Source: Okeania sp. (lineage in GTDB: Bacteria; Cyanobacteriota; Cyanobacteriia; Cyanobacteriales; Microcoleaceae). From it: 32,000 nt of DNA. The stretch spans positions 37,960 to 69,959 of the forward strand of contig NZ_JAYKGW010000168.1 of assembly GCF_035285525.1 (NCBI RefSeq). Direction: 5' to 3'. The first letter of the stretch is position 1; the number at the start of each line of letters is the position of its first letter. Positions 1,881 to 30,610 of this stretch are shown one piece after another. The notes under the pieces are model-generated. The model saw nothing but the letters and a program-made list of their open reading frames with translations. It did not search any database and had not been told where the DNA came from. The position numbers and the translations under genes are program-made.

Positions 1881-2069
1881 TTAAAAATGGGAACGTCTCT
1901 TTCTTTGCTTCTGTAAGGCCATTGCTTTACGCTTCTTTTTTTCAATTGGCGTTTCAAAGTGACGATGTTTTTTCATATCTGGAAATATTCCTGCTTGAGA
2001 AACCTGACGTTTAAATCGACGTAATGCGGATTCAATTCCCTCATTTTCTCCTAAGATAACTTGCGTCAT
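1881..2069 (-). CDS. rpsU: 30S ribosomal protein S21
   Basis: 62-aa basic [32 protein letters not shown]...[10 protein letters not shown], the canonical S21 sequence pattern. Confidence 0.9.
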
Positions 2070-3778: not shown

Positions 3779-3880
3779 ACTAAATCCGGTTGAGAAAGGA
3801 GATTTACTGTGAAGGTAAGGCAGAAGAGAGAAGGATTAAAAATAAATTGGGAAAATCACCTTCTAATAACCGGATTTAGT
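3779..3880. repeat. MITE-like or hairpin element with perfect 13-bp terminal inverted repeats (ACTAAATCCGGTT / AACCGGATTTAGT)
   Basis: The arms at 3779-3791 and 3868-3880 are exact reverse complements and lie in an intergenic region. Confidence 0.5.
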
Positions 3881-3985
3881 ATTATATAGCAATCTTAAAT
3901 AAGTTGTGGCAAATCAAACAGTAAATCAAATATTTCTTCCTATTACCTATTGCCCATTCCCTCCATACCTCTTTTCTGGAGAAAT

Positions 3986-5965
3986 CTAATTCAAAGATTC
4001 TAAAAAAGTCTTGACTCCACCATCTCGACTCAAAACTAATCTGATTTTAACAGTTTTTCCACCCTCAATATTAGACACAAAAGCTTTTTCCTCTAAAGGC
4101 ATATTTGTATCACCATAAAACTCAACTGATGCTCGATTAATCGGTGTCACCTTATTAACCGTACCATCACCATTTAATAACAAAGTATATTGCAAATCCT
4201 CAGCTAAATCCGACGGTGGTTCCCAATTTTCCTCAAAATATTCTCTCACTTCTGCAACTTGAGGAATTTTATCAAGTAAAGTATATTTAGATTTCTTTTC
4301 TTCATTACTAGGTTCAACAGTAGTTGAGGTCTCACGGACAGCAACCTGGTCTACATCTTTCAATGGTGGTAAATCAATTGCTTTAGGAATATTGATCGGA
4401 ATACTACCCACATCAAAATAGGGTTTGACCTCTGTCTGATTCAGGTTTGGTTTAATATCCTGTAACGAAGTTTGATTTAGAGTAGGTTGAGTTTGCAGAC
4501 TTGGAGGTGTTTGTACAGCAACTCTAGGTTGTACTGGCGCTCCATAGTTAGGCACTGCTGCTGGAGGAAGCGGTGGTGGTGTCAATTGTGGAATTGGAGG
4601 AAGCGGTGGTGGTGTCAATTGTGGAATTGGAGGTATTGGTGGTGGTGTCACTGGTGCGAATGAAGGTATTGGTGCTGGTGTCACTGGTGCGAATGAAGGT
4701 ATTGGTGCTGGTCTCACTGGTGCGAATGAAGGTATTGGTGGTGGTGTCACTGGTGCGAAGGAAGGAATAGGTGCTGGTTTCACTGGTGCTAAGGAAGGAA
4801 TAGGTGGTGGTGTCACTGGTGCGAAGGAAGGAATAGATGGTGGTGTCACTGGTGCGAAGGAAGGAATAGGTGCTGGTCTCACTGGTGCTAAGGAAGGAAT
4901 AGCTGCTGGTCTCACTGGTGCTGCTGGAGGAACTTGTGGTAGTGTTTGTGAAGGTGCTGAGGGAACAACAAATGTAGTCGTACTACCCTGGTTTTGGGTA
5001 CTCGTAGTTCCCTGGTTTTCGATAGTGGAAGAAAAATCAGGTGCTGGTAAATTATTAGGAGGTGGTGCTGTAGGAGTTGGTTTGGGAAACAAAGGAGATG
5101 GTGTGGGAACAGGAGAAGGTTTAACTATTGTTGTTGTTGGTAAATTTGTTGGTGGAGTCGGTAATGAGGATGGAGATATTGTTGGAGTAGCTAATGGAAT
5201 AGGGGTTGGAGATGTCTGACTAGGAATTTCTTGATTATTATTGTTGGTCGCATCTGAGTTGGTCGCATCTGATGTAGCAATATTTTCTTCTTGTTTTTGC
5301 TGACTTATTGCATAACGGTTGTAGAGTTTAATTGCACCCACAGTCAAACCAGCAGTAATTAGAATGAGTATGGCAGTATGCAGCCATTCAGGAATAGATT
5401 TAACTTCATTATCAGATTGAAATTGGGGTAATGTCTGTAAATCAGTTTGAGATTCATCGAGAGCGATCGCTAAATCATATAACTGTAGCATACTCAAGGA
5501 AATAAATGTTCCTGATTCTTTGTTTCCTAGAGGCCCCAAAAATAAATCATGGGTTAATAAATCTCGTGGTTGCACATAAATATTTTGATTATCTATGGGG
5601 GGTTGGGAATCATAGTTGACAATTTTAGGATCAGAAGTTTTGATAGTATTTTCCTGAATTTTTGTCTCAGAATCTGGTGATGGTATATTGCTATCTTTTT
5701 CTAATCTCGTGTTTTCCATGTCCAAGGGTAAATTTGGAGAGTCATTTAAAAATTCTTGGACATAGGTAGTCACAACTTTGTGTAGAGTATCCAGTTCATA
5801 GCGATCTCCCTTAACTGTAATATGCTCTCCTTCTGATACCCTGGGATCGTCAAAACTTAGGGTAAAGCGTTGTTGTCTTTGTATACCAAACCATGTTAAC
5901 AACGCTAAACCTCTAGCTGTGACTTTTAATGTACAAGTTGGGGGAGTGTAAGTTCGTGAAAACAT
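3986..5965 (-). CDS. DUF4335-like cyanobacterial protein with a TM segment and a long proline-rich repeat region
   Basis: 659-aa ORF. The N-terminus (YTPPTCTLKV...FTLSFDDPR) resembles DUF4335 proteins. It has one hydrophobic segment (WLHTAILILITAGLTVGAI). There are about 10 tandem 12-aa PxPIPSFAPVTP units. The C-terminal domain is conserved-looking. Confidence 0.75.
   Translation of the reverse strand: MFSRTYTPPTCTLKVTARGLALLTWFGIQRQQRFTLSFDDPRVSEGEHITVKGDRYELDTLHKVVTTYVQEFLNDSPNLPLDMENTRLEKDSNIPSPDSETKIQENTIKTSDPKIVNYDSQPPIDNQNIYVQPRDLLTHDLFLGPLGNKESGTFISLSMLQLYDLAIALDESQTDLQTLPQFQSDNEVKSIPEWLHTAILILITAGLTVGAIKLYNRYAISQQKQEENIATSDATNSDATNNNNQEIPSQTSPTPIPLATPTISPSSLPTPPTNLPTTTIVKPSPVPTPSPLFPKPTPTAPPPNNLPAPDFSSTIENQGTTSTQNQGSTTTFVVPSAPSQTLPQVPPAAPVRPAAIPSLAPVRPAPIPSFAPVTPPSIPSFAPVTPPPIPSLAPVKPAPIPSFAPVTPPPIPSFAPVRPAPIPSFAPVTPAPIPSFAPVTPPPIPPIPQLTPPPLPPIPQLTPPPLPPAAVPNYGAPVQPRVAVQTPPSLQTQPTLNQTSLQDIKPNLNQTEVKPYFDVGSIPINIPKAIDLPPLKDVDQVAVRETSTTVEPSNEEKKSKYTLLDKIPQVAEVREYFEENWEPPSDLAEDLQYTLLLNGDGTVNKVTPINRASVEFYGDTNMPLEEKAFVSNIEGGKTVKIRLVLSRDGGVKTFLESLN
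4560..4925 (-). repeat. in-frame tandem coding repeats (33-nt x2, then 36-nt x about 8) encoding P(A/P)PIPS(F/L)APV(T/R/K)P units
   Basis: A periodic GGTGTCACTGGTGCGAA(T/G)GAAGG(T/A)AT(T/A)GGTG(C/G)TG is directly visible on the plus strand. Confidence 0.85.
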
Positions 5966-8219: not shown

Positions 8220-10028
8220 TCAGTTTTGCATGGGTAAAATTTTAGCGTTCAACCCATTATTCTGCAAAGTTCTTAATAGTTGATTAGCTTTATAACCACT
8301 CCGAAAAGCTCCTGCTTGCATTACAGATTTACCATTAATATTAGTTGAAAAAGCATCTGGAACCAGCGATCGCAACCTAGACTCCTGATCAATATTACTG
8401 ACATTGACAATTACCCTATAACGTAAACCTAAAGCTGCTGTAGGATTTTGAGAACTAGAATTTGAAGATAATCTAGACAAAGAACTAGGACTTTGATTTC
8501 TAGCAATAACTGGTGGCACATAACCTCCACTACCAAGGGGAATATTTGCCGTCGGAACAGGTAATAAATCAAGAGAAGCAACAGGTGCGTTACTCTCATT
8601 ACTTGGGGTATTTCTTGGAGGTAAATTTCGTAATCTTTCTGGTGTTTCAGTTTTTGGTCTATTCTGATAATCAGGATTAATTCGTATTATTCTTTGTGAA
8701 TTTCTGCGACGGCTTGTGGTATTATTAGAGTCTATTCTCGCTCCTCTCTGGTTTTGTGGAGGTGGAACAGGGATAGTAATCACTTCTGAGTTAGAATTTC
8801 CCCTCGCTCCTCTCTGGTTTTGTGGAGGTGGAACAGGGATAGTAATCACTTTTGAGGTTGAATTTTCTGGTCTTGGTTGGGAAATAACACCACTAGATTT
8901 GCTCCGCTCCTCTGATTTTTCTATTGTTTTTGCCTGACTTACATTTGAGGAAGAAGGAGCAACTCTCGGAGAAAGAGCAACTTTTCCATTCATGTCGATA
9001 CTGCCATAATTACGATCACCCCCTAAAGAATTTCCATAAGCAGGAATAGTTTTACCTTCAACTTCGGAATAAATATCATACTTAAAATTATGACGGATAG
9101 TATTACGCCCAGGTTCTTGAGAATTACCTAAATCCGGTAGTGATTGAGCGATCGCCTTGACTCCATTTTGTCTATTATTTTCTATATAATTACCGCGTAA
9201 AGTTGGCTTTGCATTTCCTTGAACGATAATCCCATTTTGATTTTCAATGAGACGATTTCCAATAATTTGGGGAGCAGAATCATCAGAAATATTAATTCCT
9301 ACGCCAGTATTTTGAAAGAAATTATTTCTAATTTCTGGCTGAGAATTATCATAAATTGTTATCCCACTTCTGACATTATCATAAAAACTATTTTCTTGAA
9401 TAATTGCCGTACTATTACCCACCACAGAAATTCCATTAAGACGATTACCAGTGAAAGTATTTTTACTAATAAAAGAGCCATGAGATTCTATCAATAAACC
9501 ATAACCTTGAGAATTAGGATTTGTGACAGTTACACCACTTAAAGTTGAGTCATTACCAGCAAAAATTGTAATATTTTGGCGATTTCTAGTCGGACTCTTA
9601 AAATTACCACCACCTTCAATTACAACATTTTTCCCACTATTAAAATAGTTACCTTTAATAGCAATTTTTGGCTGTAAAATCAAAGGAAAAACTTCACCTG
9701 TTTGTCTACTATAAGTTCCAGGAGCTAGTAAAATTGTGGTATTAGGTCGAGCAATTTTCAGAGCATAAGTAATAGTTTGTAAAGGAGCAGTTTTAGTGCC
9801 ATCTCCAAAATCTTTACCAATAGATGAACTAACATAAAGCACATTCGTTTGAGAATTAGTTTGAGTTTCTGGAGATTGGGCAACTTTTTGTACTAATGGT
9901 ACTGCCAAACTTGTAGAGGTAAATAACCCCAGTAAAGCTGTAGCTAAAAGAGGTGATAAATAGTTAATTTTACGCACTAAATTTGTTTGATTATTTTCTT
10001 GCCAAAAAAGGATAAATATTAGATTCAC
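8220..10028 (-). CDS. secreted DUF1565/right-handed parallel beta-helix repeat protein with a C-terminal SPOR-like domain
   Basis: 602-aa ORF with a GTG start at 10028; an alternative GTG at 9977 gives MRKINYLSPLLATALLGLFTSTSLA, a signal peptide. It has a DUF1565-type LYVSSSIGKDFGDGTKTAPLQTITYAL...ILLAPGTY motif and repeated N-x-G/I beta-helix rungs. The C-terminus (YRVIVNV...VMQAGAF...) looks SPOR-like. Confidence 0.75.
   Translation of the reverse strand: MNLIFILFWQENNQTNLVRKINYLSPLLATALLGLFTSTSLAVPLVQKVAQSPETQTNSQTNVLYVSSSIGKDFGDGTKTAPLQTITYALKIARPNTTILLAPGTYSRQTGEVFPLILQPKIAIKGNYFNSGKNVVIEGGGNFKSPTRNRQNITIFAGNDSTLSGVTVTNPNSQGYGLLIESHGSFISKNTFTGNRLNGISVVGNSTAIIQENSFYDNVRSGITIYDNSQPEIRNNFFQNTGVGINISDDSAPQIIGNRLIENQNGIIVQGNAKPTLRGNYIENNRQNGVKAIAQSLPDLGNSQEPGRNTIRHNFKYDIYSEVEGKTIPAYGNSLGGDRNYGSIDMNGKVALSPRVAPSSSNVSQAKTIEKSEERSKSSGVISQPRPENSTSKVITIPVPPPQNQRGARGNSNSEVITIPVPPPQNQRGARIDSNNTTSRRRNSQRIIRINPDYQNRPKTETPERLRNLPPRNTPSNESNAPVASLDLLPVPTANIPLGSGGYVPPVIARNQSPSSLSRLSSNSSSQNPTAALGLRYRVIVNVSNIDQESRLRSLVPDAFSTNINGKSVMQAGAFRSGYKANQLLRTLQNNGLNAKILPMQN
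8737..8868 (-). repeat. near-identical 66-nt in-frame tandem duplication (22 aa, ...EVITIPVPPPQNQRGAR...)
   Basis: CTCGCTCCTCTCTGGTTTTGTGGAGGTGGAACAGGGATAGTAATCACTT occurs at 8737 and again at 8803. Confidence 0.85.
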
Positions 10029-10439
10029 GGCTTTCGTCCTAGGACACTGTGACAGACTATTTAGAGTTTGCTGAAAAATTCTGATGGTTGAAGTAGGGAG
10101 TAGGTAGTAATTAAGAATCAGGAGGAACAGGGAGTTATAGAATAAGTCTTTATTATAGCCCCTTTATTTTTCTCTTTCATATTACCCCAAAATCCTAACT
10201 TTTTGATTTTTCGGGAACTGTGCTTTTTTTCACAGAAAAGCTGATACTTTTTCCATATCTAAAAAAGGCTAATATCATGTCCGAATAATCAATGATAAAA
10301 AACTTTTCCCTTTGAACCAATATTCCCTTCTACTTCCCCCCCTTTTTATGCCCTATGCTTTATAAACATCTTTCTTATAAAACTTGGGTATTATTGACAA
10401 CTTATGGGTTAGTCTTGGTTCGGCTTTTTCTGGGATTAC

Positions 10440-10528
10440 AGGACTTACCCAAAGGTACTATATGTAGAGTTAAAAAACTATGGCGCCATAGTTTTAAGCG
10501 CTATATCTAGGGTCGCTGCGTAAGCTCT
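10440..10528. mobile_element. MITE-like element, AGGACTTAC... family
   Basis: Terminal inverted repeats AGGACTTACCC...GCGTAAGCTCT with a conserved core TAAAAAACTATGGCGCCATAGTTTTAAG. It is the reverse complement of the copy at 11400-11489. Confidence 0.6.
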
Positions 10529-10599
10529 GATTATTTAAGTATTTTTACTTAGCTAGCATGATTGTTTCTCCCTTCTCCCCTGCTAAGAGCTCCCCCTTC

Positions 10600-10724
10600 C
10601 CCTCCTGGGAGGGGCTAGGGCTGAGTCCCACAAGGGTTTCAGGAGTTATGGGTAAGGGATATCCCTCCTGGGAGGGGCTAGGGCTGAGTCCCACAAGTTT
10701 TTCAGAAGTTATGGGTAAGGGATA
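10600..10724. repeat. 63-nt tandem duplication containing the palindrome CCCTCCTGGGAGGGG
   Basis: CCTCCTGGGAGGGGCTAGGGCTGAGTCCCACAAG...TTATGGGTAAGGGATA is seen twice in tandem. Confidence 0.8.
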
Positions 10725-11261
10725 GCTTTCACTTGTGGGGTAGGGGGGATTGTCTCTGTGTTCCTCTGAAGTGTAACTATTTAACCGATACTTTTTCTGT
10801 CAATACTTTTAGATTTAATCAGCAAGCCCTCTTCAATTATTATATATAGTTTGATAATAGGGGGTAGGGGTTTAAACCAAAGGGGGTAATAGTTCTACTC
10901 CATAAGCAGTAATTTTGTAAGCATTTCCTACAGAATGCTACGCAAACAGCCATCAGCTATTAGCTATCAGCTAGGAATATCTTTCTTGCGTTGAAAGACA
11001 ATAACCGGAATTTTGAAAGAGTAAATAAATATATTTTCTATCGGCTCCATCTCCCCACCTAATTTTATTCCGATATATAGAATTCGGTTATATAGAACCC
11101 CTAACTGTATCTTTAGTTTTTTTTGCCAAAGAAGTTAAGTCAGGAGTCAACCCACCCCTAACCCTGACCGTGGAGGGGAAATAAGGAAAAAGCTAGAATT
11201 AGAGCCTTATATTCACCATCTCCCCATCTCCCCATCTAATTTTAGAGACCCATTTAGGGGT

Positions 11262-11385
11262 TCTATACAGCAAATTTCCGGCATTAAGATGTACAGGGTA
11301 AATGGTGAAAACATTGCAGTGCGGTCCGGAAAGCCTGCGCAGGTGTACCTCATAAAAATGGAAAGCGCTGTAGTATGTGTTGATA
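11262..11385. repeat. dispersed structured repeat (GGTAAAxGGTGAAAAC...AGTGCGG-hairpin-GCG..GGTxTACCTCATAA..GGAAGCxCTGTA)
   Basis: A related copy lies at about 1655-1745. A partial inverted copy lies at about 13255-13310. The central hairpin sequence differs between copies. Confidence 0.5.
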
Positions 11386-11399
11386 ATTCTATAATTATG

Positions 11400-11489
11400 A
11401 GGACTTAGGTGGCAGCCATAGATATAGTGCTTAAAACTCTGGCGCCATAGTTTTTTAACTCTATATATAGTACCTCCCATGTAAGTCCT
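11400..11489. mobile_element. MITE-like element, AGGACTTAC family
   Basis: AGGACTTAGG...CATGTAAGTCCT termini and the same core as the 10440-10528 copy, in opposite orientation. Confidence 0.6.
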
Positions 11490-11512
11490 GATTATTTTAA
11501 TCTACCCTATCT

Positions 11513-11560
11513 CCCCTACTCCCCTACTCCCCTACTCCCCCACTCCCCTACTCTCTCACT
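11513..11560. repeat. STRR-like tandem octamer (CCCCTACT x about 6)
   Basis: Directly visible periodic sequence in an intergenic region. Confidence 0.8.
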
Positions 11561-11738
11561 CCTTAATAGGTGTACCACACTAAGATAAAATCCCCTGTAA
11601 ATGTTAAGAAGTGTCATAAAACAATTTATATTAGTAACAAAATTTGTCTTGGTTTGCCTCCCAAATATCTGAGTGACCAAGATTATAGTTATGGTTGATA
11701 AACACAAACTTAGGATTAAAACTTATAGGATAATTTTT

Positions 11739-12821
11739 ATGGGCGATCAATATAATGGGGATAAAAATGTGCAACCTGCCGTTCGGCGAATTTTAGATGC
11801 CAATTTAGATAGGGCGCGGGAAGGACTGAGAATTATTGAAGAATGGTGTCGCTTTGGCCTTAATAGTGTTAATTTGGCCAATGAATGTAAACTATTACGT
11901 CAAGAAATTGGGAGCTGGCATGGCACAGAATTAAGAATGTCCCGCAATACTCCTGGAGACCCTGGTACGGAATTAACTCATCCACAAGAGGAACACCGTT
12001 CAGATGTGCAACAACTACTACAAGTTAATTTCTGTCGTTTAGAAGAAGCGCTCAGAGTTCTAGAAGAATATGGAAAAATTTATAATTCTCAGATGGCTTC
12101 TGCTTGTAAACAAATACGTTATCGAGTTTATACTATCGAAAGTGGGATTCTTGCCTATCAGAGAAATCAACAACTCCAAAACTCTTACTTATATCTTGTC
12201 ACCTCACCCCAAGAAAAATTAACTGATATAGTAGAAGCTGCTCTTCAGGGAGGATTAACTCTTGTCCAATATCGGAATAAAACCGCAAATGATGTAAGAA
12301 AGTTAACAGAAGCTCAGGAACTTTGTCAAATGTGCCGTCGCTATGGCGCTCTATTTATTATTAATGACCGAGTAGACTTAGCGATCGCTGTTGATGCAGA
12401 TGGAGTTCATCTGGGACAAGAGGATATACCTGTTAATTTGGCTAGACAACTCCTTGGTCCCCAGAAACTGATTGGTCGTTCGACCACAAATCCAGAAGAA
12501 ATGAAGCGAGCAATCGAGGAAAAAGCCGATTATATTGGAGTCGGACCAGTATATGAAACTCCGACTAAAGCAGGTAAAGCAGCAGCAGGTTTAGAATATA
12601 TTAGTTATGCTGTGAAAAATTGTCCGATTCCTTGGTTTGCTATTGGTGGAATTGATATGCAAAACTGTGATGAAGTTCTATCTGGTGGTGCCGAGCGTGT
12701 CTCCGTAGTTAGGGCGATTATGGAGGCAGAGCAACCAACTTTGGTAACTCAATATTTTCTGTCTCAATTAAATCGTTATCAAACTCTACGCTCTCATAAT
12801 ATATTACCGGAAAAAATCTAG
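11739..12821 (+). CDS. thiE: thiamine-phosphate synthase with a cyanobacterial-type N-terminal extension domain
   Basis: The C-terminal roughly 210 aa match ThiE motifs (LYLVT..., VQYRNK, FIINDRVDLA...DGVHLGQEDIP, IGRSTT, ADYIGVGPVYETPTK, PWFAIGGI). The ATG at 11739 is preferred over the upstream start of the 382-aa track ORF at 11673. Confidence 0.85.
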   Translation: MGDQYNGDKNVQPAVRRILDANLDRAREGLRIIEEWCRFGLNSVNLANECKLLRQEIGSWHGTELRMSRNTPGDPGTELTHPQEEHRSDVQQLLQVNFCRLEEALRVLEEYGKIYNSQMASACKQIRYRVYTIESGILAYQRNQQLQNSYLYLVTSPQEKLTDIVEAALQGGLTLVQYRNKTANDVRKLTEAQELCQMCRRYGALFIINDRVDLAIAVDADGVHLGQEDIPVNLARQLLGPQKLIGRSTTNPEEMKRAIEEKADYIGVGPVYETPTKAGKAAAGLEYISYAVKNCPIPWFAIGGIDMQNCDEVLSGGAERVSVVRAIMEAEQPTLVTQYFLSQLNRYQTLRSHNILPEKI

Positions 12822-12832
12822 GTTACATAGGA

Positions 12833-13048
12833 ATGTCAAATAAAATAACACTTAAGGTTAATGGAGAAACTCGCACCTGTTTACCCCAGACTCTTCTACC
12901 AAATTTTCTGGAAGAGTTGGGGTTAAACCCGCGTTTGGTAGCTGTGGAATATAACGGTGAGATTCTCCATAGACAATTTTGGGATGAAACTGAAATGCAA
13001 TCGGGAGATAAATTGGAAATAGTTACTATTGTAGGAGGAGGTGTATAG
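12833..13048 (+). CDS. thiS: sulfur carrier protein ThiS
   Basis: 71-aa ORF 11 nt after thiE. It has a ubiquitin-like ThiS pattern (ITLKVNGE..., VAVEYNGEILHR..., GDKLEIVTIVGGG). Confidence 0.85.
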   Translation: MSNKITLKVNGETRTCLPQTLLPNFLEELGLNPRLVAVEYNGEILHRQFWDETEMQSGDKLEIVTIVGGGV

Positions 13049-13143
13049 GATTTGCGTCAGGAGCCAGAATCCAGAATCCAGAAGTCAGTAGGAATGGGAA
13101 TTATAGAAGAGTCATTTCAGTTATCAGTTATCAGTAGAGAGTG

Positions 13144-20470: not shown

Positions 20471-21166
20471 TTGCAAGCAAGAGAAATCGAGCCTAAGCTA
20501 AAACAACTTAGCCGTCTTGCCTGGTCAACTGAACCTGCGTTAGCCCAGAGGTTAGAAGAAGTTAGGCGCTGGATTAAGGACATTAGACCAGGCTTACTGA
20601 CAAACAAAGGTGTTTTAGTAGGATTTTTGTTAGAATTAATTAAGGATGGAGAATTTTGGTTAAAATTACAATCATTAACAAACGAAGAAAGAGAAATATT
20701 TTTACAACATCTACCGTCCCCAGTTATATATTGGTATGAAAATCTTTTTCCCAAATGGTTTAATGAAAATGATCATAAATTTTATATATGGAAACAGAAA
20801 TTAAGATCTGGAGAGTTTAGCCAAGAAGATGCTGAACTAATAGAATCTATTGCCCATCAGATTAAAAGTCGCAATGGTTGTGTTGTACATCGTTACATTG
20901 CAGATTTGTCTATGGCAACAGATGTGATTGTGAGTAGTAGCACAGGCAAGCCTCTCTGTGTTCAACTTACTACTATGTCCGGAGAACTTTCCGAAGATAA
21001 GTACAAAGAGTGGAAAGATACATTAAAGCAATGGGAGATTAGACGAGGTATTTTTGTTAGCTATAATCCCAGTCAGGAGCGTTCTGTTGCGAAATTAGTA
21101 AATCTGGTTCTGCATAATAGCAATCATTTAAAGGAGGCTAAATACATTAAATTTTGTTTTAGATAG
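20471..21166 (+). CDS. hypothetical protein (231 aa)
   Basis: Long ORF with a TTG start 4 nt after a GGAGG motif. I recognise no family. It is flanked by MITE-like elements. Confidence 0.5.
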   Translation: MQAREIEPKLKQLSRLAWSTEPALAQRLEEVRRWIKDIRPGLLTNKGVLVGFLLELIKDGEFWLKLQSLTNEEREIFLQHLPSPVIYWYENLFPKWFNENDHKFYIWKQKLRSGEFSQEDAELIESIAHQIKSRNGCVVHRYIADLSMATDVIVSSSTGKPLCVQLTTMSGELSEDKYKEWKDTLKQWEIRRGIFVSYNPSQERSVAKLVNLVLHNSNHLKEAKYIKFCFR

Positions 21167-22206: not shown

Positions 22207-22749
22207 ATGAATCATCAATATTTGCAGCAAGTTTTGTGGAGTTTGACAATATTTTTGAGTAGCTTTAATTATCAAAAATTAATCCCAAATTTGCCAGAAA
22301 TTCCCACTCTTAAACTAACTTATCTTTCCCAATCAAATACAGTAGATTCACCATATAATGAGATGGAACAATCTGTATTTAATTATGTAAATCAACATCG
22401 AAATTCTCAAAATTTACCGACTCTTCAGTGGAATTATACTATTGCTGAACAAGCAAAAATTCATGCTCAACAAATGGCTAGTGGTCAAACAACTTTTAGC
22501 AATAATGGATTTAAAGAAAGAGTAGAAATAATCAGTGAAAAAATTCCTTATAAAAGTGCGGCGGAAAACATAGCTGAAGAAGAAAAGAATGGTTATAATG
22601 ATCCTGTAAGAAAAGCTGTTGTTGGTTGGATTAATAGTCCTGAGCATCGTCAAAATATGGAAGGTGACTATAATTTAACAGGTGTTGGTATTGCTCAAAG
22701 TTCTGATGGCACATATTACTTTAATCAAATGTTTATCAAAACGAGATAA
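22207..22749 (+). CDS. CAP/SCP (PR-1-like, YkwD-type) domain protein
   Basis: 180-aa ORF with the CAP pattern: VNQHRNSQNLPTLQWN..., AENIA..., GWINSPEHRQNM, GVGIA...YYFNQMF. Confidence 0.75.
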   Translation: MNHQYLQQVLWSLTIFLSSFNYQKLIPNLPEIPTLKLTYLSQSNTVDSPYNEMEQSVFNYVNQHRNSQNLPTLQWNYTIAEQAKIHAQQMASGQTTFSNNGFKERVEIISEKIPYKSAAENIAEEEKNGYNDPVRKAVVGWINSPEHRQNMEGDYNLTGVGIAQSSDGTYYFNQMFIKTR

Positions 22750-22836: not shown

Positions 22837-25215
22837 TTAGATATCTTCAAAGAGTGGCATATAAGCATTTAATGGAGATTCTAATTCCTCAAGTAATAAA
22901 GCTATTCCGAGTATTCCTTTGTAAAGACTAAAAGGATAATTATGAAGGAAGTCAATATTTTCTAATGCTTTAATAGCTAGTTCTTTACTTTTGATTAACC
23001 AGTATGTTTCTGAGCTATATTTATACAAGTTTAAAACTGAATAAGCAGCTCCAGATAAACCACAGCATAAATCAGAAATTATATAACTATTTCCTAAGAC
23101 ATTAATTGCTGCTTTTTCTGCTAGATTCAAATAGCGATTATTACGGAAATATTTGTCAGCTATTACCCATAAATGAATTAATCCAGCAGTACCATTACAC
23201 CACCAGGGAACATATTCCAAACTTTCCCTTTTTTTACTATTAATTTTCTGTTTCCACTGCATTCCATTCTGACAATTTTCACCCATTTCCGATAATTGTT
23301 CTAGTCTTAATTCTAGAGAATTTGGTAATTCTTGTTTTGTTACTTGACACCAATGTAAAGTTCCATAGAGTAAACCTGCCCATCCATGAGCTAAACCAAG
23401 GTAAGGAAAATTTAAACATTCTCTAATTGGTTTAAAAGTGTCAATTTCTTGCCATATTTCTGATAATATTTTGTTACCTAATTCTAAAATTGCTTGATTT
23501 TCAGGGATAATTTTCATTAGTAATGAGTAACCATTGAGAATCCCGGCTTTACCCATATTTAATTCAATAGAGTCACATTTTATTTGAGATGTAATAACAT
23601 AATTATTTACTGCCTCTTGTAAACAGGTTTCATCTCCCATAGTATGACTAATTATTGCCTGCATAAAATGAATACCTGGTTGATGATAATAAAAAGAAAT
23701 TGGTTTAACTATGTCTTGATTTAAAGACAAATTTTGATTAAAAAATCCCGACTCATTGTGACATTGACTTAAGGCTTGATTATTCCATAAATCTGCAATT
23801 GATAAAAGTTCTGGATTATCCCGAATACAAGATAATCTATAGAGAAAATAAGCTGTTCCTGCTGCACCAAAAACAATGTTTGCTGTGGGCGCTCTATGCA
23901 AATTTGTCAAAGTTTCAGTAGTAAGATTACTACTGATTTGATGAATAATATTGGCTAATTTTTGTCGATTAATATGAATACTAGGAGATAGATTTTTATT
24001 TTCGGAAATTTTTGGTTTTTCTGTGATTTTTTCTAAGTCTTGAACCATTTCTGACAAAGAGAAAAAACGCTCTTGAGGTTTTTTACTTAAAGACTTAAAT
24101 AATACCTTTTCCATTTCTATCCAAGATGATAAATCTTGTGATGAAAAAGATAGGGGAATTTCCTCTTGAATTTGCCGTAACATTTCCTGTTTATCTAAAG
24201 AAAAACGAAGATAATGTTTCCCTGCTAGAAGATAATATAACAAAGCACCAATACAATATTGTTCTGCTTTTTGAGTAGATTTTAGTAAAGGTTTTTTCTG
24301 ACTCCGAGCCAGAGCATATTCAGGCTCAAAATAATATGCCACACCACCAGTACGATAATTATTTTGAGTATCTTTTTCTAATCTGGCTAGACCATAATCA
24401 ATAATTTTAATTCTTCCCACCTCATCAACTAGAATATTCCGAGGATGAATATCAATATGTAGCACTCCTTGACTGTGTAAATGAACATAAGCTTTGACAA
24501 TTTTTATAGCTAAAGATAATAGCTGATTTTTACTTCCAATAATTCCTAATTTTCGAGCTTCTCTTGCCCGACTATTTACATCAATACCAGATACCCATTC
24601 ACTCACAAAATAGGTTTTACTATCAAATTCCCCTTGATGCTCAAGTCGAGGATTAATTTTGCCGTCTAAATGTTGTAAAATATTGATTTCGTGCAAGAGA
24701 GTTTGTTGGGCTTTTTTATCTGTTGAATTTCTGACAATTTTCAAAGCCATTAAATAATTATTAGTATTTCTAACTTGATAAACTTCTACATCTTCATCAG
24801 CTTGGATAATTTTAATAATTTGAAATTGCTGAATATATTCTCCTATTTGATAAGTAGGTTCAATATTTTCTACTGCATCTGAGTTCGCAGGAACTATTAA
24901 ACCTATTTTGATAAAATGATCGACTATGGGTATGGTTTCTTGTAAAAGTTGATAAGCATCTATGGTTTTATTTCTACTAACTTTAACAACTACATCGACA
25001 ATTTTTTGAGGGGATATAAATTCTGTCATTAAATTAGCTGTGGCATTATCAATTGTTTTGGAAGGGATTCTACTACCACGACGACTAATGACATATTCTC
25101 CTTCATTTGTTTCTAGTTGTTGTTGAATATTATTAGGTAATTCAGTAATAGGAGTAATAACTACATCTTTGGGTAAAATATAATTTTGATTGGGGTCAAC
25201 TTTAGATTTATTCAT
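22837..25215 (-). CDS. Ser/Thr protein kinase fused to a LanC-like lanthionine cyclase domain, with no full-length lyase domain (lanthipeptide-synthetase-like)
   Basis: Residue numbers refer to the 804-aa track ORF. Kinase motifs are LMALK (Lys171), HIDIHPRN (Asp267) and IIDYGLA (Asp285). LanC motifs are GLAHGWAG (His622, nt 23386-23388), WWCNGTAG (Cys685, nt 23197-23199) and DLCCGLSG (Cys729-Cys730-Gly, nt 23059-23067). Only about 130 aa precede the kinase domain. The ATG at 25215 (MNKSKVDP...) is preferred to the TTG at 25251. Confidence 0.85.
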   Translation of the reverse strand: MNKSKVDPNQNYILPKDVVITPITELPNNIQQQLETNEGEYVISRRGSRIPSKTIDNATANLMTEFISPQKIVDVVVKVSRNKTIDAYQLLQETIPIVDHFIKIGLIVPANSDAVENIEPTYQIGEYIQQFQIIKIIQADEDVEVYQVRNTNNYLMALKIVRNSTDKKAQQTLLHEINILQHLDGKINPRLEHQGEFDSKTYFVSEWVSGIDVNSRAREARKLGIIGSKNQLLSLAIKIVKAYVHLHSQGVLHIDIHPRNILVDEVGRIKIIDYGLARLEKDTQNNYRTGGVAYYFEPEYALARSQKKPLLKSTQKAEQYCIGALLYYLLAGKHYLRFSLDKQEMLRQIQEEIPLSFSSQDLSSWIEMEKVLFKSLSKKPQERFFSLSEMVQDLEKITEKPKISENKNLSPSIHINRQKLANIIHQISSNLTTETLTNLHRAPTANIVFGAAGTAYFLYRLSCIRDNPELLSIADLWNNQALSQCHNESGFFNQNLSLNQDIVKPISFYYHQPGIHFMQAIISHTMGDETCLQEAVNNYVITSQIKCDSIELNMGKAGILNGYSLLMKIIPENQAILELGNKILSEIWQEIDTFKPIRECLNFPYLGLAHGWAGLLYGTLHWCQVTKQELPNSLELRLEQLSEMGENCQNGMQWKQKINSKKRESLEYVPWWCNGTAGLIHLWVIADKYFRNNRYLNLAEKAAINVLGNSYIISDLCCGLSGAAYSVLNLYKYSSETYWLIKSKELAIKALENIDFLHNYPFSLYKGILGIALLLEELESPLNAYMPLFEDI

Positions 25216-25671
25216 AATTATTGGAAGTAGGAAGTAGAAGGAAATAACCAATTATTTCTGCTCGATAATTGATGGAATTTTTGATAATCATAAATATCTA
25301 TTTAAAAGTGATATTTAGTAATCATAAATAGGTTGTAAAATTTTATAGTAGGGGTTTGGTCTCCAAAGCCTTACACTTATTGTTCGCAAATCATTTAGGA
25401 CTTGCTATTGGTAAGCATTCTGCATCGTCAGCTAACAGCTATCAGCTCCTGAAAAACATCTATAATTTCCGACTATAAATTATATGGGTTAAAAGCTCAG
25501 ATATATAGTTGAAAAGTAGAAGTTGAAGTTGAAAAAGCGCTTGACTTACTTCATTCATTAAAAAAACTAAGAGCTGACTGCTGACTGCTGAATGCTATTA
25601 ATGGTAAGTAATCAGATTTTGAATGTAAATAAAAACACATTTGCTCTAAATATTTAACATATTCAAATTTG

Positions 25672-25810
25672 CTTTAACCATACTTAAAGATGGAAATTTG
25701 GAAGTAGGGAGTAGGAGGAAGTAATCAATTATTTACCCCCTTTCCTTTAACCATACTTAAAGATGGAAATTTGGAAGTAGGGAGTAGGGAGTAGAAGGAA
25801 ATAATCAATT
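25672..25810. repeat. tandem duplication of about 70 nt (CTTTAACCATACTTAAAGATGGAAATTTGGAAGTAGGGAGTAGG...AATCAATT), with a third partial copy at 25221-25255 abutting the kinase-LanC start codon
   Basis: Copies at 25672-25730 and 25745-25810. The motif TTGGAAGTAGGAAGTAGAAGGAAATAACCAATT recurs at 25221-25253. Confidence 0.75.
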
Positions 25811-25997
25811 CCTTTAATTGTATGGTTTGAAAAGTCAAAATATTCGTTATTTCTCTGCAAATTATGGGTTAAAAATGTGAAGTACAATCAACTATTTTTC
25901 CTTGACTTTTTTGAAATAATAGCTGAATATTCAGGAAGCTAAACATTTTAAATACTGTGATTTTACTTCATTTAATATGAAGTTAATTTCTGATAAA

Positions 25998-27161
25998 TTA
26001 CGGCTGAATATTTACTATTGAAGGAATCCAATTAGTTGTATCAATGCCTTCTAAACTTAATCGTTTGAGAGCAAATATTCTCGGTTCTAAATCAGTATTT
26101 TTATTACTTTTAGCTGCAATAATGGCAGATGCTAAACGATTAGTAATCCACAGTCGCCAACTTTCTTTTTCTTGCCAATTTGGTTGATATTTATCCTGGG
26201 GAGGATCTATACCCCAAGACAGTAAACCTCCAGAAGTAATTTCAGCAGTAAAAGGAACTCCTTGAGCAGGTATATTTGTTAAAGCAGATGCTAATTTTTC
26301 GGCTGTATTTTGTAGGTTTTCTAAGGTGTAAAAATAGGCAATAAAATTATCTGGTCGCAGTAAACCACTAATCTTTTTGGCAAATTTTAGAGAGCGAGTT
26401 TCAGTATCAGAAAGAATGGCAATAACTTCTCCCAATATTTCTTTTTGAAATTCTATATTGGTACTGACATAAAGTTTATATCGCCACTGTTTTTTGTCTG
26501 TAGGTGTCTGGTCGTGACGCGATCGCCACAATGACCAATAATCTCCATATTTATTGGTGACTTTTACTGGTTCCCAATGTTTTTCTAATAAATGGTAGTG
26601 TTTTCCATCGGGGTGAAGATGGAGATATTTTACTAGATATTCTGGAGTTGAGAATGCTTGATGTCGTTTAGGAGTCAGGGGAAGTCGGTTATAAAAATAT
26701 AGTCGTGCTGATAGTTTGGTGACATCGGTAATATTCAGTTTTTCGGCGTACTCTATTGCTTTCATGGATAGTTGCGCTAGTTTACTACCGTTATTAGGTG
26801 AATATTTTTCAGGTTCGAGAATACTGTAAGCTTCAGCACCGGAAACAAAACCATTTTCTGTCTGTAATTCTAAGATACTATCTAGCAGCAACTTTTCGAT
26901 TGTGGTGTTTGTATTTTCCCCAAGGGAGGATATAATTTCTTTAGGAATTTTTCCTGGATGATGGAGATTTTGGTAGAGTTTAGCAGTTTGATGACAAATA
27001 GCTTTGATGGTTAAACCTGAATTTTCATTGGGTAGTAAAACGCCAAAAAAATCTGGGTCTTCACGGAGTTGAGAAAGGTTGTTTTGCTCGTTGGGAGTTA
27101 GGTTTTCGTAGGGAACTAATTTGTATTTTTGGTTCGCTCGGAAAATTGTGGTTTGTATCAT
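25998..27161 (-). CDS. hypothetical protein (387 aa) between the peptide gene and the kinase-LanC gene; candidate stand-alone lyase or recognition partner
   Basis: Clean ATG-initiated ORF co-oriented with its neighbours. Conserved-looking blocks are YKLYVS, LLRPDNFIAYFY, GVPFTAEI, LLSWGIDPP and ESWRLWITNRLA. The family cannot be assigned by eye, so the function is inferred from context only. Confidence 0.6.
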   Translation of the reverse strand: MIQTTIFRANQKYKLVPYENLTPNEQNNLSQLREDPDFFGVLLPNENSGLTIKAICHQTAKLYQNLHHPGKIPKEIISSLGENTNTTIEKLLLDSILELQTENGFVSGAEAYSILEPEKYSPNNGSKLAQLSMKAIEYAEKLNITDVTKLSARLYFYNRLPLTPKRHQAFSTPEYLVKYLHLHPDGKHYHLLEKHWEPVKVTNKYGDYWSLWRSRHDQTPTDKKQWRYKLYVSTNIEFQKEILGEVIAILSDTETRSLKFAKKISGLLRPDNFIAYFYTLENLQNTAEKLASALTNIPAQGVPFTAEITSGGLLSWGIDPPQDKYQPNWQEKESWRLWITNRLASAIIAAKSNKNTDLEPRIFALKRLSLEGIDTTNWIPSIVNIQP

Positions 27162-27294
27162 GTTGAAGTTGGTTATACCAGGCGCGATAAATGTTTACAA
27201 ATGGTAGAAGCAGAGGCAGAGAAACCGGGTTTGTCTTAAATGCCCTGAAATAATAATATGACCTCCAACAAACCCGGTTTTTTTATAACACTTC

Positions 27295-27380
27295 GGACTT
27301 ACGAAAACATGAAAATATAGACCATTTGTAGGGGCGAATGGCATTCGCCCATACTATCTATAGCGGTACTGCGTAAGTCT
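27295..27380. mobile_element. MITE-like element (CGGACTTACG...CTGCGTAAGTCT) carrying the palindrome GGGCGAATGGCATTCGCCC
   Basis: Family termini plus an 8-bp-stem hairpin. It lies between the peptide gene stop (27432) and the 387-aa gene start (27161). Confidence 0.55.
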
Positions 27381-27431
27381 TGATAATATGCTAGGAGTTG
27401 GCAGACTAAACCCCTACAAAATAGCGATCGC

Positions 27432-27710
27432 TTATGCAGCTAATGCCATTTTTAGTTGTTCTTGTAATTTAGACATTAAGTCATCTTGAGAGGGATAGAG
27501 CAAACTGCCTAAAACTTCCTTGAGTTCATTCTCCATAGGTGCGCCAACAGTCACGCTACAAGTGCAGGCAGTACAAGATAGATAGTTAGCTTCTACACCA
27601 ACAGTAGCACTGCAAGTACAATCAGTACAAGATAGATAGTTAGCATCAACTCCAGATCGGTTTGCTGCTTGAGGCAGAATATTAACCATTAAGTCACGAA
27701 CTTTAAGCAT
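27432..27710 (-). CDS. candidate RiPP precursor peptide with two tandem Cys/Ser/Thr-rich modules
   Basis: 92-aa ORF with an AAGGA Shine-Dalgarno-like motif 8 nt upstream of the ATG. Residues 23-40 (ANYLSCTDCTCSATVGVE) and 41-58 (ANYLSCTACTCSVTVGAP) form an 18-aa tandem repeat (nt 27591-27644 and 27537-27590). The modules differ by four synonymous codon changes while every Cys, Ser and Thr is retained. It lies first in a co-oriented set with the kinase-LanC gene. Confidence 0.75.
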   Translation of the reverse strand: MLKVRDLMVNILPQAANRSGVDANYLSCTDCTCSATVGVEANYLSCTACTCSVTVGAPMENELKEVLGSLLYPSQDDLMSKLQEQLKMALAA

Positions 27711-27769
27711 TATTTTGTCCTTAATAATTGAATTATGTTGTTTCCTGAAACTGGTTAATTAAAATGTTT

Positions 27770-27869
27770 AGGACTGACGCAAAGAAACCCGGTTTCTAGG
27801 CTAAATCATTGTTTTGAACAAGAAACATCCACGAGAAACCCGGTTTCTGGGTTCTGCTGCGTAAATCCT
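27770..27869. mobile_element. MITE-like element (AGGACTGACGCA...CTGCGTAAATCCT) containing two AGAAACCCGGTTTCT dyads
   Basis: Family termini. The internal dyads are at 27783-27797 and 27834-27848. It lies 60 nt upstream of the peptide gene start. Confidence 0.55.
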
Positions 27870-27936
27870 GATGTTTTTTCTTGACTTCGTTTCATTACAA
27901 ATAATCATAGTTCGGCTTTTTGGAAATAGATAAAAT

Positions 27937-28108
27937 GTGAAGTAAACTTTCACCTTCAATTTTATCAGAAACCGGGTTTTTGGGAAACAAAAGTAAGTAT
28001 AGTAAGAGTTCTAAATACAAACCCGGTTTCTACCCTTGACAAATAATAATGTGACATTTCTTTTCACCCTCAGCATCAAACCAGAAAATAGGTGAAAATA
28101 TAATTCAC
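27937..28108. promoter_or_regulatory. three GTGA(A/C)-N7-TTCAC dyads in the divergent intergenic region
   Basis: GTGAAGTAAACTTTCAC at 27937-27953, GTGACATTTCTTTTCAC at 28051-28067 and GTGAAAATATAATTCAC at 28092-28108. All three have identical half-site spacing. A regulatory role is inferred only. Confidence 0.35.
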
Positions 28109-28296
28109 GTTTTGAATATTAATCTAAATATCTATACAATAATTATTGTAATTGTCTACTCCATCCCTTTTCTGTTTCTCTCTATTCTCTAAATATTAGG
28201 AATATATTAACAGGCAAGATTCTTGTGCCACTAAACTATTAATATAATCTCAGGAACAGGCAAGATGCCTCTGTTACATTTGGATATAAAAAAGTT

Positions 28297-29607
28297 ATGA
28301 AAAAAGAAGTATTTCAACATATTTTTCCCTCTAAATTAACAGAGGATGAATTACAAACACTAAAGTTGTTCTTAGATGGTCATAAAGATAAAGACATTGC
28401 TGATTCCATGAATTGGGATAGGTCAAATATTCCTAGAAAATTAAAAGCGATCGCTTTAAAATTTGACTATCCTAAAAACTCTGACTCTAGTTTTGTCAGA
28501 GAGTTTTTAGTAGAAATATTCAGCAAACATCAACCCCACTTAGTTTGTCAGAAATTGAAGGATAAATATCTTGCTAGTCCTAATAAAATTATAATTCCTG
28601 GTAGACCAGAGAAATTAGATTCTCCTTTTTATATAGAACGTAATCGAATTAGACGATGTTCTATTGAATCAGAATGTTATGAAAATATAGAAGTTCCTGA
28701 TTGTTTAATCAGAATCAAAGGACCGAAACAAATGGGTAAAACTTCTCTATGAACGCGGATAGAAGGTCATGCAATTAAAAACAAATATGAATCTATCTAT
28801 CTCAGATTTGATAAACTAATTGAACCAACAAATATTAAAAATATTAATGATTTTCTCAAAGCATTCAATAAAAATATTAAAAGTAGGTTTCCTGATGCTC
28901 CTAACTGGAATAGATGGGACGACCAAAATGCCAAAATATCTTGCACTGAAGAAATTGAAGCTCTCTTATATCATTTAGATAAAGTGGTAGTTTTAATCTT
29001 AGATGAAGTGGATGAAATTTTTAACTATCCAGAAATATCTAGAGACTTTTTTATCATGTTAAGAAGTTGGTATGAGGCTAGCAACCATAAAGAAATTTGG
29101 GAAAATTTACGAATGGTAATTGCTGATTCTACAGAATATCATGGCAAATTAGATATTCATCTTTCTCCTTTTAATGTTGGTTTACCTATAGAATTAAAAG
29201 AGTTTACACAAGAGCAAGTTACTCAGTTAGTATACTTACATCAATTACCAATAAAAGTAGTAAATAGTTTGATGTCTATAGTCGGAGGTCATCCTTATTT
29301 AATCAGATTAGGTTTATATAAAATGTCGGCAGATGAATTAACAATTGAAAAACTCTTAAAATATGCTGCGACTGAAAGTGGAATTTATCAACAACATTTA
29401 AGTAGACATTTAGAAACTTTGTCTAATCAAAAAAATATTAAAGCAGTTTTTAGCCAAATATTAAAAGCTAATTCACCTCTACGTTTACCCAATAAAAATA
29501 GAGAATTACATCAATTAGAAGCTATGGGATTAATTACAATTAAAGCTGATTTTGCTGAACCTTGTTGTAAATTATACCGAAAATATTTTCAGGAACGTCT
29601 ACTTTAA
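28297..29607 (+). pseudogene. LuxR/GerE-type HTH plus AAA-like (STAND-like) ATPase, interrupted by a single in-frame TGA at 28750-28752
   Basis: The N-terminus (LTEDELQTLKLFLDGHKDKDIADSMNWDRSNIPRKLKAIALKF) fits a LuxR-type HTH. Walker A GPKQMGKTSL is immediately followed by TGA. The same frame stays open through Walker B (VVVLILDEVDE) to 29607; track ORFs 28297-28752 and 28984-29607 are both in frame 1. The PDSPFYIER...IRIKGPKQMGKTS pattern resembles cyanobacterial AAA-like domain proteins. Confidence 0.65.
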
Positions 29608-30022: not shown

Positions 30023-30610
30023 ATGAAAAATATTGCCAAACTCACAATTGGATTAATAACAGTTGGTCTCATTAGTTGTACTAAAGTAGTATTAGCCAAC
30101 CCCCAACGGCAAAACTCCACTACCTACGATACTACTAATATTTCTCAAGTTTCCACCCCAGAAGATAATACACTTCCTGATTTTGAAGCGGAGGTAGAGC
30201 GATCGCTACTAACACAGCGAAGCGGTTCCACTTTAGAAAAAGCATGGCTTTACAGTGATAACTTTGTGATATATGAATGGTTACGTTATAGTAATGGCGG
30301 AAAACTTCATTCTAGTGGCATATATATTGAACTAACGGGGAACAAATTGACTTTATACAACTCCCACCAGTTGGAGCCATTAGGACAAAATGCCAGATGT
30401 GGTGGTTTCGGATGCAATTTAGCTAAAGGTTCCCTGGTAGCAACCCTGATTTTTGAGCGTCAAGGAAATTTATTTCTTGTGCGTGAGGCTTCGGAAAGGG
30501 CAAGTTTCTTGCAAGGTGCTAAGTGTAGAGTCAAACCTAGTTACAATGACATACTAGAATGCTCGTCACAAAATTCTCCTGCTGTTTACAGGTTTGTTGT
30601 ACCAAGCTGA
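30023..30610 (+). CDS. secreted protein or putative lipoprotein, unknown function
   Basis: 195-aa ORF with GGAGG 8 nt upstream. It has a signal peptide with the lipobox-like LISC (MKNIAKLTIGLITVGLISC). No family recognised. Confidence 0.6.
   Translation: MKNIAKLTIGLITVGLISCTKVVLANPQRQNSTTYDTTNISQVSTPEDNTLPDFEAEVERSLLTQRSGSTLEKAWLYSDNFVIYEWLRYSNGGKLHSSGIYIELTGNKLTLYNSHQLEPLGQNARCGGFGCNLAKGSLVATLIFERQGNLFLVREASERASFLQGAKCRVKPSYNDILECSSQNSPAVYRFVVPS

Follow-up and report, generated by a model that had tools for sequence, protein, structure and literature searches.

A probable two-protein lanthionine synthetase and its candidate substrate in Okeania, with relatives in many bacterial phyla

Introduction

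What might be made by three co-oriented minus-strand genes of which one specifies a small peptide, the next a 387-aa lyase-like protein and the third a kinase fused to a LanC-type cyclase? They lie in a 32,000-nt stretch of DNA from the cyanobacterium Okeania, the whole of which is called the window here. The answer favoured, to which a probability of about 0.7 is given, is that the locus encodes a two-protein lanthionine synthetase together with its substrate. Lanthipeptide synthetases are classed by the architecture of their enzymes, and here the chemistry of kinase, lyase and LanC, familiar in itself, appears to be laid out in a new way. The module is conserved across many bacterial phyla and very probably makes thioether-bridged (lanthionine) peptides.

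A first-pass annotation had already placed the locus between the described lanthipeptide classes on the grounds of a separate lyase and a fused kinase-cyclase, and profile searches, structure matches and co-conservation support that placement. A check of open reading frames (ORFs) finds the three genes where it had put them (Table 1). It made no mention of the recognition element (RRE) of pathways for peptides that are ribosomally synthesised and then modified post-translationally (RiPPs) that both enzymes appear to carry, nor of the CCG motif in the cyclase, the conserved N-terminal motif and C-terminal helix or domain of the peptide, or the large size of the family.

The kinase-cyclase fusion

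Is the largest of the three proteins really a kinase joined to a cyclase, and is there room in it for a lyase as well? The fusion proposed at the outset is borne out by Pfam, with Pkinase found at E 1e-28 and LANC_like at E 7.5e-31, the latter match being full length (profile positions 10-346 of 350). A match to APH within the kinase domain is short by comparison, at E 5e-5 over 30 residues. The ATG used as the start, at 25215, is conserved in Trichodesmium and is the one adopted in the NCBI record of a 100%-identical Okeania sp. contig. The region ahead of the kinase had been thought too short for a lyase, and so it proves: the NCBIfam LanL model aligns at positions 229-802 only and scores 139 bits where the cut-off is 650, and as the alignment begins at position 229 the protein has no lyase domain. 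The NCBIfam LanKC model reaches 79 bits against a cut-off of 575.

Homologues of this protein, 770-840 aa long, are a discrete family, with scores of at least 235 bits followed directly by generic kinases at 76 bits or less. The kinase residues listed in Table 1, where K159 is the beta3 Lys and the residue after D273 may be Phe or Tyr, are invariant in all 43 homologues, as are H610 (the His of GxAHG), C673 (the Cys of WCxG) and C717-C718-G719 of the cyclase. Cyclases of classes I, II and IV canonically bind zinc through Cys-Cys-His (CHG); a CCG motif, with three Cys ligands, is the documented hallmark of promiscuous ProcM-type enzymes. At the third ligand position 43 of the 43 kinase-LanC proteins read CCG and not CHG.

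What, then, occupies the N-terminal 110 or so residues? Their structural neighbours in Foldseek are nearly all RREs, those of PqqD, TigE, TbiB1 with its leader, MibB, ThcOx, McbBCD, TbtB and TruD, which suggests that this segment of the predicted structure is an RRE and that it may bind a leader.

The stand-alone lyase

If the fusion has no lyase, where is it? The separate 387-aa gene was an obvious place to look, and had been pointed to as such, with the rider that its product was an orphan that could be assigned to no family. The first part of that view has gained support and the second has not survived. Over 1,000 homologues, about 400 aa in length, are found in a database of 5.8 billion proteins, and a family profile run against 1.84 billion representatives finds 1,581 clusters at 50% identity, 1,098 of them at E<=1e-30; the top 150 clusters are all stand-alone proteins of 320-510 aa. 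Neither as a single sequence nor as a family profile does the protein match anything in Pfam, NCBIfam or the sequences of the PDB, and it was through structure prediction and Foldseek that the lyase fold came to be seen, since the sequence searches were blank. An AlphaFold2 model built from 51 family members (predicted local distance difference test score, pLDDT, 89.4; predicted template modelling score 0.88) has as its significant PDB matches phospho-Ser/Thr lyases exclusively, at E values from about 1e-6 to 1e-3. They include HopA1 (E 9e-7); LxmY (E 9e-6), which in the class V lexapeptide dehydratase LxmKY serves as the lyase; the lyase domains of ThurKC, SalKC, PneKC and CuvL; and OspF and SpvC (both at E ~1e-3). 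Some relatives give a faint echo of this in sequence, as 5 of the 51 match Pfam HopA1 weakly (best E 4e-4), the Okeania protein not being one of them, and 5 of the 51 match, also weakly, RamC_N, which is the domain at the N-terminus of RamC, a class III enzyme.

Residues K229, Y231, K259, R269, D271 and Y276 are invariant in the C-terminal half of the family. The catalytic residues of CaoY, which have been defined experimentally, are R187, K219, R229 and Y236, corresponding to K104, K136, R148 and Y158 of SpvC. The spacing of K229, K259, R269 and Y276 resembles that of the CaoY set, which suggests a residue-by-residue correspondence.

The N-terminal domain of the lyase is of separate interest. 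When it was aligned by hhalign with the N-terminal domain of the kinase-LanC protein, using the larger alignments, the probability was 90% and E was 1.6e-6 over 63 columns, whereas a control in which the kinase-LanC N-domain was set against the C-terminal part of the lyase gave E 0.33. The same comparison of the two N-domains from small alignments was weaker (E 0.013). The AlphaFold2 models have their secondary-structure elements in the same order in both. From this homology it follows that each of the enzymes appears to own an RRE-like domain.

The candidate substrate and its relatives

What would two putative leader-binding domains bind? The 92-aa peptide is the sole ORF of the window to match a hidden Markov model of the N-terminal motif of the precursor family (E 3.6e-7). 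That motif, FK[VI][KR][DE]LM[IV]..LP, is common to the precursors of cyanobacteria, Streptomyces, Chloroflexota, Acidobacteriota, Bacillus and others, and has lineage variants such as AFDVKELMIDITK and AFKAEELTxKIFP. Across the family the precursor ORFs are 45-281 aa long, with a median of 144, and have three parts: the N-terminal motif, a hypervariable core in which Cys and Ser/Thr are abundant, and a C-terminal helix. The Okeania peptide carries all three. Its repeat-bearing character had been remarked on at first sight, and the two 18-aa repeats correspond to a 54-nt tandem duplication. Internal repetition of the core is frequent among the relatives too, as for example (CSG)n, (CGPC[ST]x5)n, (CPxxT)n or (C[ST]xx)n, and in 53 of 53 precursors the Cys count does not exceed the count of Ser plus Thr. 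The helix motif LxxL[KQ]xQL is present in 34 of 53 precursors when a strict regular expression is applied, and in most non-cyanobacterial loci the helix is lengthened to a helical domain of about 60 aa.

Comparison with the locus of a Trichodesmium metagenome-assembled genome (MAG), L006, is instructive. At the nucleotide level nothing there matches the core region, 27482-27613, while its flanks are 84-90% identical, and a fast-evolving core between conserved flanks is the classic RiPP pattern of recognition sequences around a core. The precursors match no Pfam or NCBIfam family, and the Okeania peptide has no relative but itself in the database of 5.8 billion proteins, probably because small ORFs are seldom called.

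Some precursor loci depart from the simple arrangement. In an Armatimonadota MAG (L016, 2366-4061) the lyase gene has upstream of it, at a distance of about 100 nt, two precursor genes in tandem, whose products of 270 aa and 282 aa contain 26-28 Cys apiece; here the candidate substrates are more than one and very large. In two MAGs labelled Nitrososphaerales archaeon, a label that comes from MAG binning (L064, 1862-2599; L066, 5214-5951), the trio is present and the precursor is one 245-aa ORF with two leader motifs and two C-terminal domains, its first unit being without Cys. The Trichodesmium MAG itself has, at 5301-5589 of L006, a second copy of the upstream region of the peptide gene and of its first ~13 codons (MMLKVQDLMVNIL), joined in frame to an unrelated membrane protein of about 400 aa, on to 6700, with an HRYHH (desaturase-like) motif. 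This suggests that promoter and leader segment were duplicated there as a cassette.

Linkage across phyla

Do the three genes belong together, or has chance brought them side by side? Conservation of the trio had been proposed as a check with the Nostocales as the frame of comparison, which was not apt, as the source is Okeania, of the Oscillatoriales; the check was run across phyla instead and the linkage is kept. In a scan of one genome per species 290 genomes had a relative of the lyase, and 80 loci were fetched. A majority of these are from Acidobacteriota, and the others are from Chloroflexota, Planctomycetota, Gemmatimonadota, Armatimonadota, Eremiobacterota, Nitrospirota, Proteobacteria, Bacillus, Streptomyces (Actinomycetota), cyanobacteria and the MAGs labelled Nitrososphaerales. 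The succession of a gene for ~400 aa and then one for ~800 aa with Pkinase and LANC_like is found alike in a cyanobacterium, in Streptomyces afghaniensis and in a Chloroflexota MAG. Carriers that have been cultured include S. afghaniensis (L003), Bacillus pfraonensis 70b (L069, where the core is small) and Crocosphaera sp. XPORK-15E (L042). Among the 61 loci with enough downstream sequence, a complete kinase+LanC ORF is directly downstream of the lyase gene, on the same strand, in 58, the median gap being 6 nt. Of the three exceptions, two have a kinase-LanC copy with a frameshift that tblastn still finds, and two loci other than that of Okeania have gaps of 1-1.6 kb between the enzyme genes. 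On the other side of the lyase gene, a precursor ORF is directly upstream in 60 of 69 evaluable loci, at a median distance of 41 nt. Members of the trio families have been annotated merely as 'hypothetical protein' or 'LanC family protein'.

In some loci the trio is bordered, on one side or on both, by large proteins of 1150-1230 aa (at ~2000-5700 and ~9500-13100) that combine a Ser/Thr kinase domain with beta-propeller-like 'WSPDG' repeats at the C-terminus. They are confined to Thermoanaerobaculia/Holophagales loci (L030, L054, L062, L084 and others).

A pathway in outline

How might the parts work together? The functions proposed for the enzymes draw on the identity of their domains and on the invariance of their catalytic residues. 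The 92-aa peptide would be the precursor, and its strand-like N-terminal motif, LKVRDLMVNILP, would be bound by the putative RRE domains with which the two enzymes begin. Ser and Thr of the core would be phosphorylated by the 792-aa enzyme through its Hanks-type kinase domain, whereupon the separate HopA1/LanY-like lyase, acting in trans, would eliminate the phosphate (beta-elimination) to leave dehydroalanine or dehydrobutyrine. Addition of core Cys to these dehydro residues by the LanC domain, with its three-Cys zinc site (CCG), would close the lanthionine or methyllanthionine rings. The order of the steps, the residues modified, the topology of the rings and the pairing of each RRE with its element are what we infer from the parts. 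More speculatively, the C-terminal helix of the precursor may be a second recognition element, a follower, or else an element for assembly or oligomerisation.

The state of the Okeania copy and its surroundings

Is the Okeania copy in good order? Each of the three ORFs is intact and runs to its full length, none of the catalytic residues having been lost, and the proteins are 81-82% identical to their Trichodesmium orthologues, a level consistent with purifying selection. In Trichodesmium L006 the two enzyme genes overlap by 8 nt; in Okeania they are separated by an insertion (Table 1) with 48-nt direct repeats (25668-25715 and 25741-25788, 98% identical), runs of CCCTACT-type heptamers and copies of the sequence just upstream of the kinase-LanC start codon. 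A divergent gene for a helix-turn-helix (HTH) ATPase had been reported beyond the peptide gene. It is present, though not whole, as its single frame of 436 codons is broken by a lone TGA at 28750-28752, right after the Walker A motif (GKTSL*), and the stop could reflect a pseudogene, a sequencing error or a site of read-through. This protein has weak, collinear similarity to the HTH-STAND ATPase encoded by a divergent GerE-NB-ARC gene in the same position in the cyanobacterial locus L001, and to judge by that likeness a regulatory link to the trio is possible but weak.

The description of the region as riddled with miniature inverted-repeat transposable elements (MITEs) was right in part only, for what it holds is the repeat-laden insertion and, upstream of the peptide gene, three palindromes. 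Across the window as a whole the degenerate pattern RAAACCSGGTTTY occurs 4 times (299-311, 27784-27796, 27835-27847 and 27968-27980) against 0 expected; the palindrome may be a short dispersed repeat, possibly MITE-related or the core of a MITE. The lack of HIP1 sites from the 2.4-kb kinase-LanC gene is likewise true, and is not significant, since 16 sites in 32 kb lead to an expectation of about 1.2 for the gene. Nor is the AT-richness peculiar to the region: its low GC content of 0.29-0.31 is real, with similar values elsewhere in the window. A horizontal origin argued from these two features was judged non-significant. A defence-system reading was dropped because the PADLOC matches are limited to the generic kinase domain.

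The trio is flanked by housekeeping genes, and a Pfam scan of the ORFs of the window found neither a protease nor an ABC exporter anywhere in it, as had been noted at first inspection of the vicinity. Neighbouring plus-strand ORFs at 20471-21166, 22207-22749 and 30023-30610 encode 231-aa and 195-aa proteins without a Pfam match and one protein with a CAP/SCP domain (cysteine-rich secretory protein family), the CAP/SCP ORF being the one directly downstream of the kinase-LanC gene, on the other strand. Not one of these is kept beside the trio in other genomes. A scan with Rfam found nothing, and one for promoters and terminators told nothing, the promoter-like sites being fewer than those of shuffled sequence.

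Table 1. Features of the locus, numbered from the first nucleotide of the window
Feature	Coordinates	Strand	Basis and remarks
RRE-Ser/Thr kinase-LanC(CCG) fusion enzyme, 792 aa	22837..25215	-	Pfam Pkinase and LANC_like
Predicted N-terminal RRE of the fusion (PqqD-like winged helix), residues ~10-110	24886..25188	-	AlphaFold2, pLDDT 88.9; Foldseek
Hanks-type Ser/Thr kinase domain	24064..24786	-	K159, H253xD255, N260, D273YG, E297PE
LanC-like cyclase domain	22855..23868	-	H610, W672-C673, C717-C718-G719 (three-Cys zinc site)
Predicted stand-alone phospho-Ser/Thr lyase, 387 aa	25998..27161	-	N-terminal RRE-like domain and HopA1/LanY-like catalytic domain; AlphaFold2 and Foldseek
RRE-like N-terminal domain of lyase, residues ~9-76	26934..27137	-	hhalign to kinase-LanC N-domain
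Candidate precursor peptide gene, 92 aa	27432..27710	-	Leader motif, two repeats of 18 aa in the core, helix at the C-terminus; ribosome-binding site AAGGA 8 nt upstream
N-terminal recognition motif (putative) LKVRDLMVNILP, residues 2-13	27672..27707	-	Family motif FK[VI][KR][DE]LM[IV]..LP
Hypervariable core with two 54-nt units in tandem that encode V(D/E)ANYLSCT(D/A)CTCS(A/V)TVG	27544..27651	-	Direct repeat, 81% identical
C-terminal amphipathic helix DDLMSKLQEQLKMALAA	27435..27485	-	Family motif LxxL[KQ]xQL; conserved in Trichodesmium L006
Repeat-laden insertion of ~785 nt between lyase and kinase-LanC genes	25216..25997	.	Absent in Trichodesmium L006
Three GAAACC(C/G)GGTTT(C/T) palindromes upstream of peptide gene	27784..27980	.	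GAAACCCGGTTTC at 27784 and 27835; GAAACCGGGTTTT at 27968
LuxR-type HTH and AAA_35 P-loop ATPase gene, divergent	28297..29607	+	Pfam AAA_35 split over two ORFs

Relation to the described classes

Where does such a system fit? A review dated August 2026 recognises six classes of lanthipeptide. Near relatives in chemistry are the class IV LanL enzymes (VenL, SgbL, CuvL), in which too a Ser/Thr kinase is followed by a zinc-type LanC, and which work by the phosphorylation, beta-elimination and thiol addition that are predicted here. However, in LanL an OspF-like lyase is fused at the N-terminus and the enzyme is RRE-independent, whereas in the Okeania system the lyase is separate and the N-terminal domain has the fold of an RRE; LanL binds zinc with CHG and the Okeania family has CCG, its precursors having in addition a conserved C-terminal element. 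Class III LanKC enzymes have a fused lyase and a cyclase without zinc ligands, in contrast to a protein with invariant zinc-ligand Cys and no lyase domain. Enzymes of classes III and IV have been reported to recognise their leaders without an RRE.

Class V and the thioamitide pathways, with LanK and LanY (LxmKY, CaoKY, TvaCD), offer a different likeness, having a stand-alone HopA1-like lyase, a resemblance at the level of fold, and a separate protein that contains the kinase. There the kinase is APH-type (PF01636) and the cyclase, LanX, is not LanC-like, while the Okeania system joins a kinase of Hanks type to a genuine LanC. Lys is at the presumed first catalytic position in the Okeania lyase family, as in OspF and LanL, where LanY has Arg, and the family also differs from LanY in its extra RRE-like domain and in being barely detectable as HopA1 by sequence. 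The CCG group of class II, of ProcM type, shares the Cys-Cys-Gly motif with its three Cys zinc ligands and the hypervariable substrates, but ProcM, itself a LanM, carries a dehydratase domain that resembles lipid kinases and has neither Hanks kinase, separate lyase nor RRE. Class VI LanKCb is, like the present enzyme, centred on a kinase and off the standard lyase-kinase-cyclase layout. Going by its description it is set apart as a single polypeptide with truncated lyase and cyclase, reported from Streptococcus only and acting on very short substrates, whereas the Okeania cyclase is full length with zinc ligands and its lyase is a separate protein of full size. Finally, the predicted PqqD-like winged helix and a leader motif that looks strand-like recall RRE-dependent RiPP enzymes such as PqqD, lasso-peptide B1 proteins, LanB/MibB and cyanobactin heterocyclases, in which the RRE binds the leader as an added beta-strand.

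The enzyme layout thus fits none of the six described classes. In the open-access literature, which was the scope of the search (subscription-only papers being outside it), no description was found of an RRE-kinase-LanC protein with a stand-alone lyase, and no report of an RRE fused to a Hanks kinase-LanC or to a phospho-Ser/Thr lyase. Neither NCBIfam (June 2026) nor Pfam (2025) has a model for the lyase or the precursor. By the convention of the field this is plausibly a new class of lanthipeptide synthetase. A bolder proposal, the odds on which are put at slightly less than even, would make it a seventh architectural class, its first recognised member being in a cyanobacterium: a widespread two-protein system of RRE-lyase and RRE-kinase-LanC with a Cys3 zinc site, in which each enzyme docks independently on a shared leader. 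Its substrates would be unusually large (70-280 aa), with a leader and a conserved C-terminal follower or coiled coil. As substrates of that size have both a leader and a C-terminal domain, the products may be protein-sized; they would perhaps be multiply thioether-bridged and kept on an oligomerising tail, and not be small secreted antibiotics.

Weighing the alternatives

Several observations count against a two-protein lanthionine synthetase acting on the neighbouring peptide. The RRE matches in Foldseek have modest E values, 4e-3 to 0.5, with target-normalised TM scores of 0.66-0.76, and the Pfam PqqD and ThcOx matches of the same domain are non-significant, for which reason the RRE is a fold-level assignment. 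The call of lyase rests similarly on fold similarity, as the 387-aa family has no profile-level match to a solved lyase. Greedy gene maps across phyla reveal no conserved protease or exporter, nor any other neighbour that is kept. Many precursors are of 150-280 aa with a long coiled-coil-like tail, unlike typical lanthipeptides, and in Okeania the enzyme genes are split by the insertion and the neighbouring putative regulator has a stop codon.

Could this be an ordinary class IV (LanL) or class III (LanKC) cluster beside which the 387-aa gene is an unrelated neighbour? Rules of the antiSMASH/RODEO type, which look for Pkinase with LANC_like, would place it there, and LanL is indeed the best NCBIfam match of the fusion. 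But that match falls far below its cut-off and starts only at position 229, the N-terminus preceding it has the fold of an RRE and not of a lyase, the presence of zinc ligands is at odds with class III and their CCG form with CHG, and a gene with a lyase fold that keeps its place in 58 of the 61 loci, the median gap being 6 nt, is not readily seen as unrelated; the idea is scarcely tenable. Very unlikely too is that both enzymes act on cellular proteins, in signalling or in the repair or removal of phospho-sites, with the upstream ORF not being a substrate. The kinase domain is, it is true, closest in sequence to the generic Hanks kinases StkP and PknB, lyases of the OspF/HopA1 type are known from the literature to act on protein kinases, and extra large kinases stand beside the module in some Acidobacteriota. 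Against this, those extra kinases are limited to particular lineages, the peptide gene is tightly linked to the lyase start and has conserved flanks around a hypervariable core, and there are two RRE-like domains to account for.

It is less easy to dispose of a pathway in which Ser and Thr are dehydrated but intramolecular lanthionines do not form, either because an external thiol is added, in the manner of LanCL with glutathione, or because the product is a Cys-rich metal binder with regulatory phosphorylation and elimination. Eukaryotic LanC-like proteins add glutathione to dehydroamino acids, and the large precursors with long helical tails, their many CxxC-like spacings and the want of a conserved exporter or protease would suit such a scheme. 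The invariable company of Cys and Ser/Thr within the hypervariable core, Cys never being in excess, speaks for rings instead, as do RRE domains and a leader-like motif, which are hallmarks of RiPP pathways, and a CCG zinc site known from the lanthionine-forming ProcM enzymes; this alternative is on balance improbable. There is, lastly, a limited but real chance that the cluster in Okeania is a decaying, non-functional remnant of a family that functions elsewhere. An insertion that breaks the near-universal coupling of the enzyme genes and an adjacent HTH-ATPase gene with an in-frame TGA mean that this copy may be poorly expressed or decaying, and the low GC and abundance of repeats point the same way. 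Yet the intact ORFs with all their catalytic residues, and the identity to Trichodesmium that fits purifying selection, tell against decay, and gaps of 1-1.6 kb are tolerated in two other loci. A lanthionine synthetase of two proteins, with the peptide as its substrate, is still the reading preferred.

Implications

Why should such a system matter? The family is widespread: its lyases fall into ~1,580 clusters at 50% identity and occur in no fewer than 290 genomes at species level, which belong to soil, marine and other phyla. Mining rules that combine Pkinase and LANC_like would file its loci as class III or IV, and probably miss the lyase and the atypical precursors. If the proposal is true, the conserved leader motif and the lyase family would provide a handle for RiPP discovery, and nature would have supplied an experiment on how a substrate is handed over in split as against fused synthetases. 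It would also give a set of hypervariable, repeat-rich cores of Cys, Ser and Thr.

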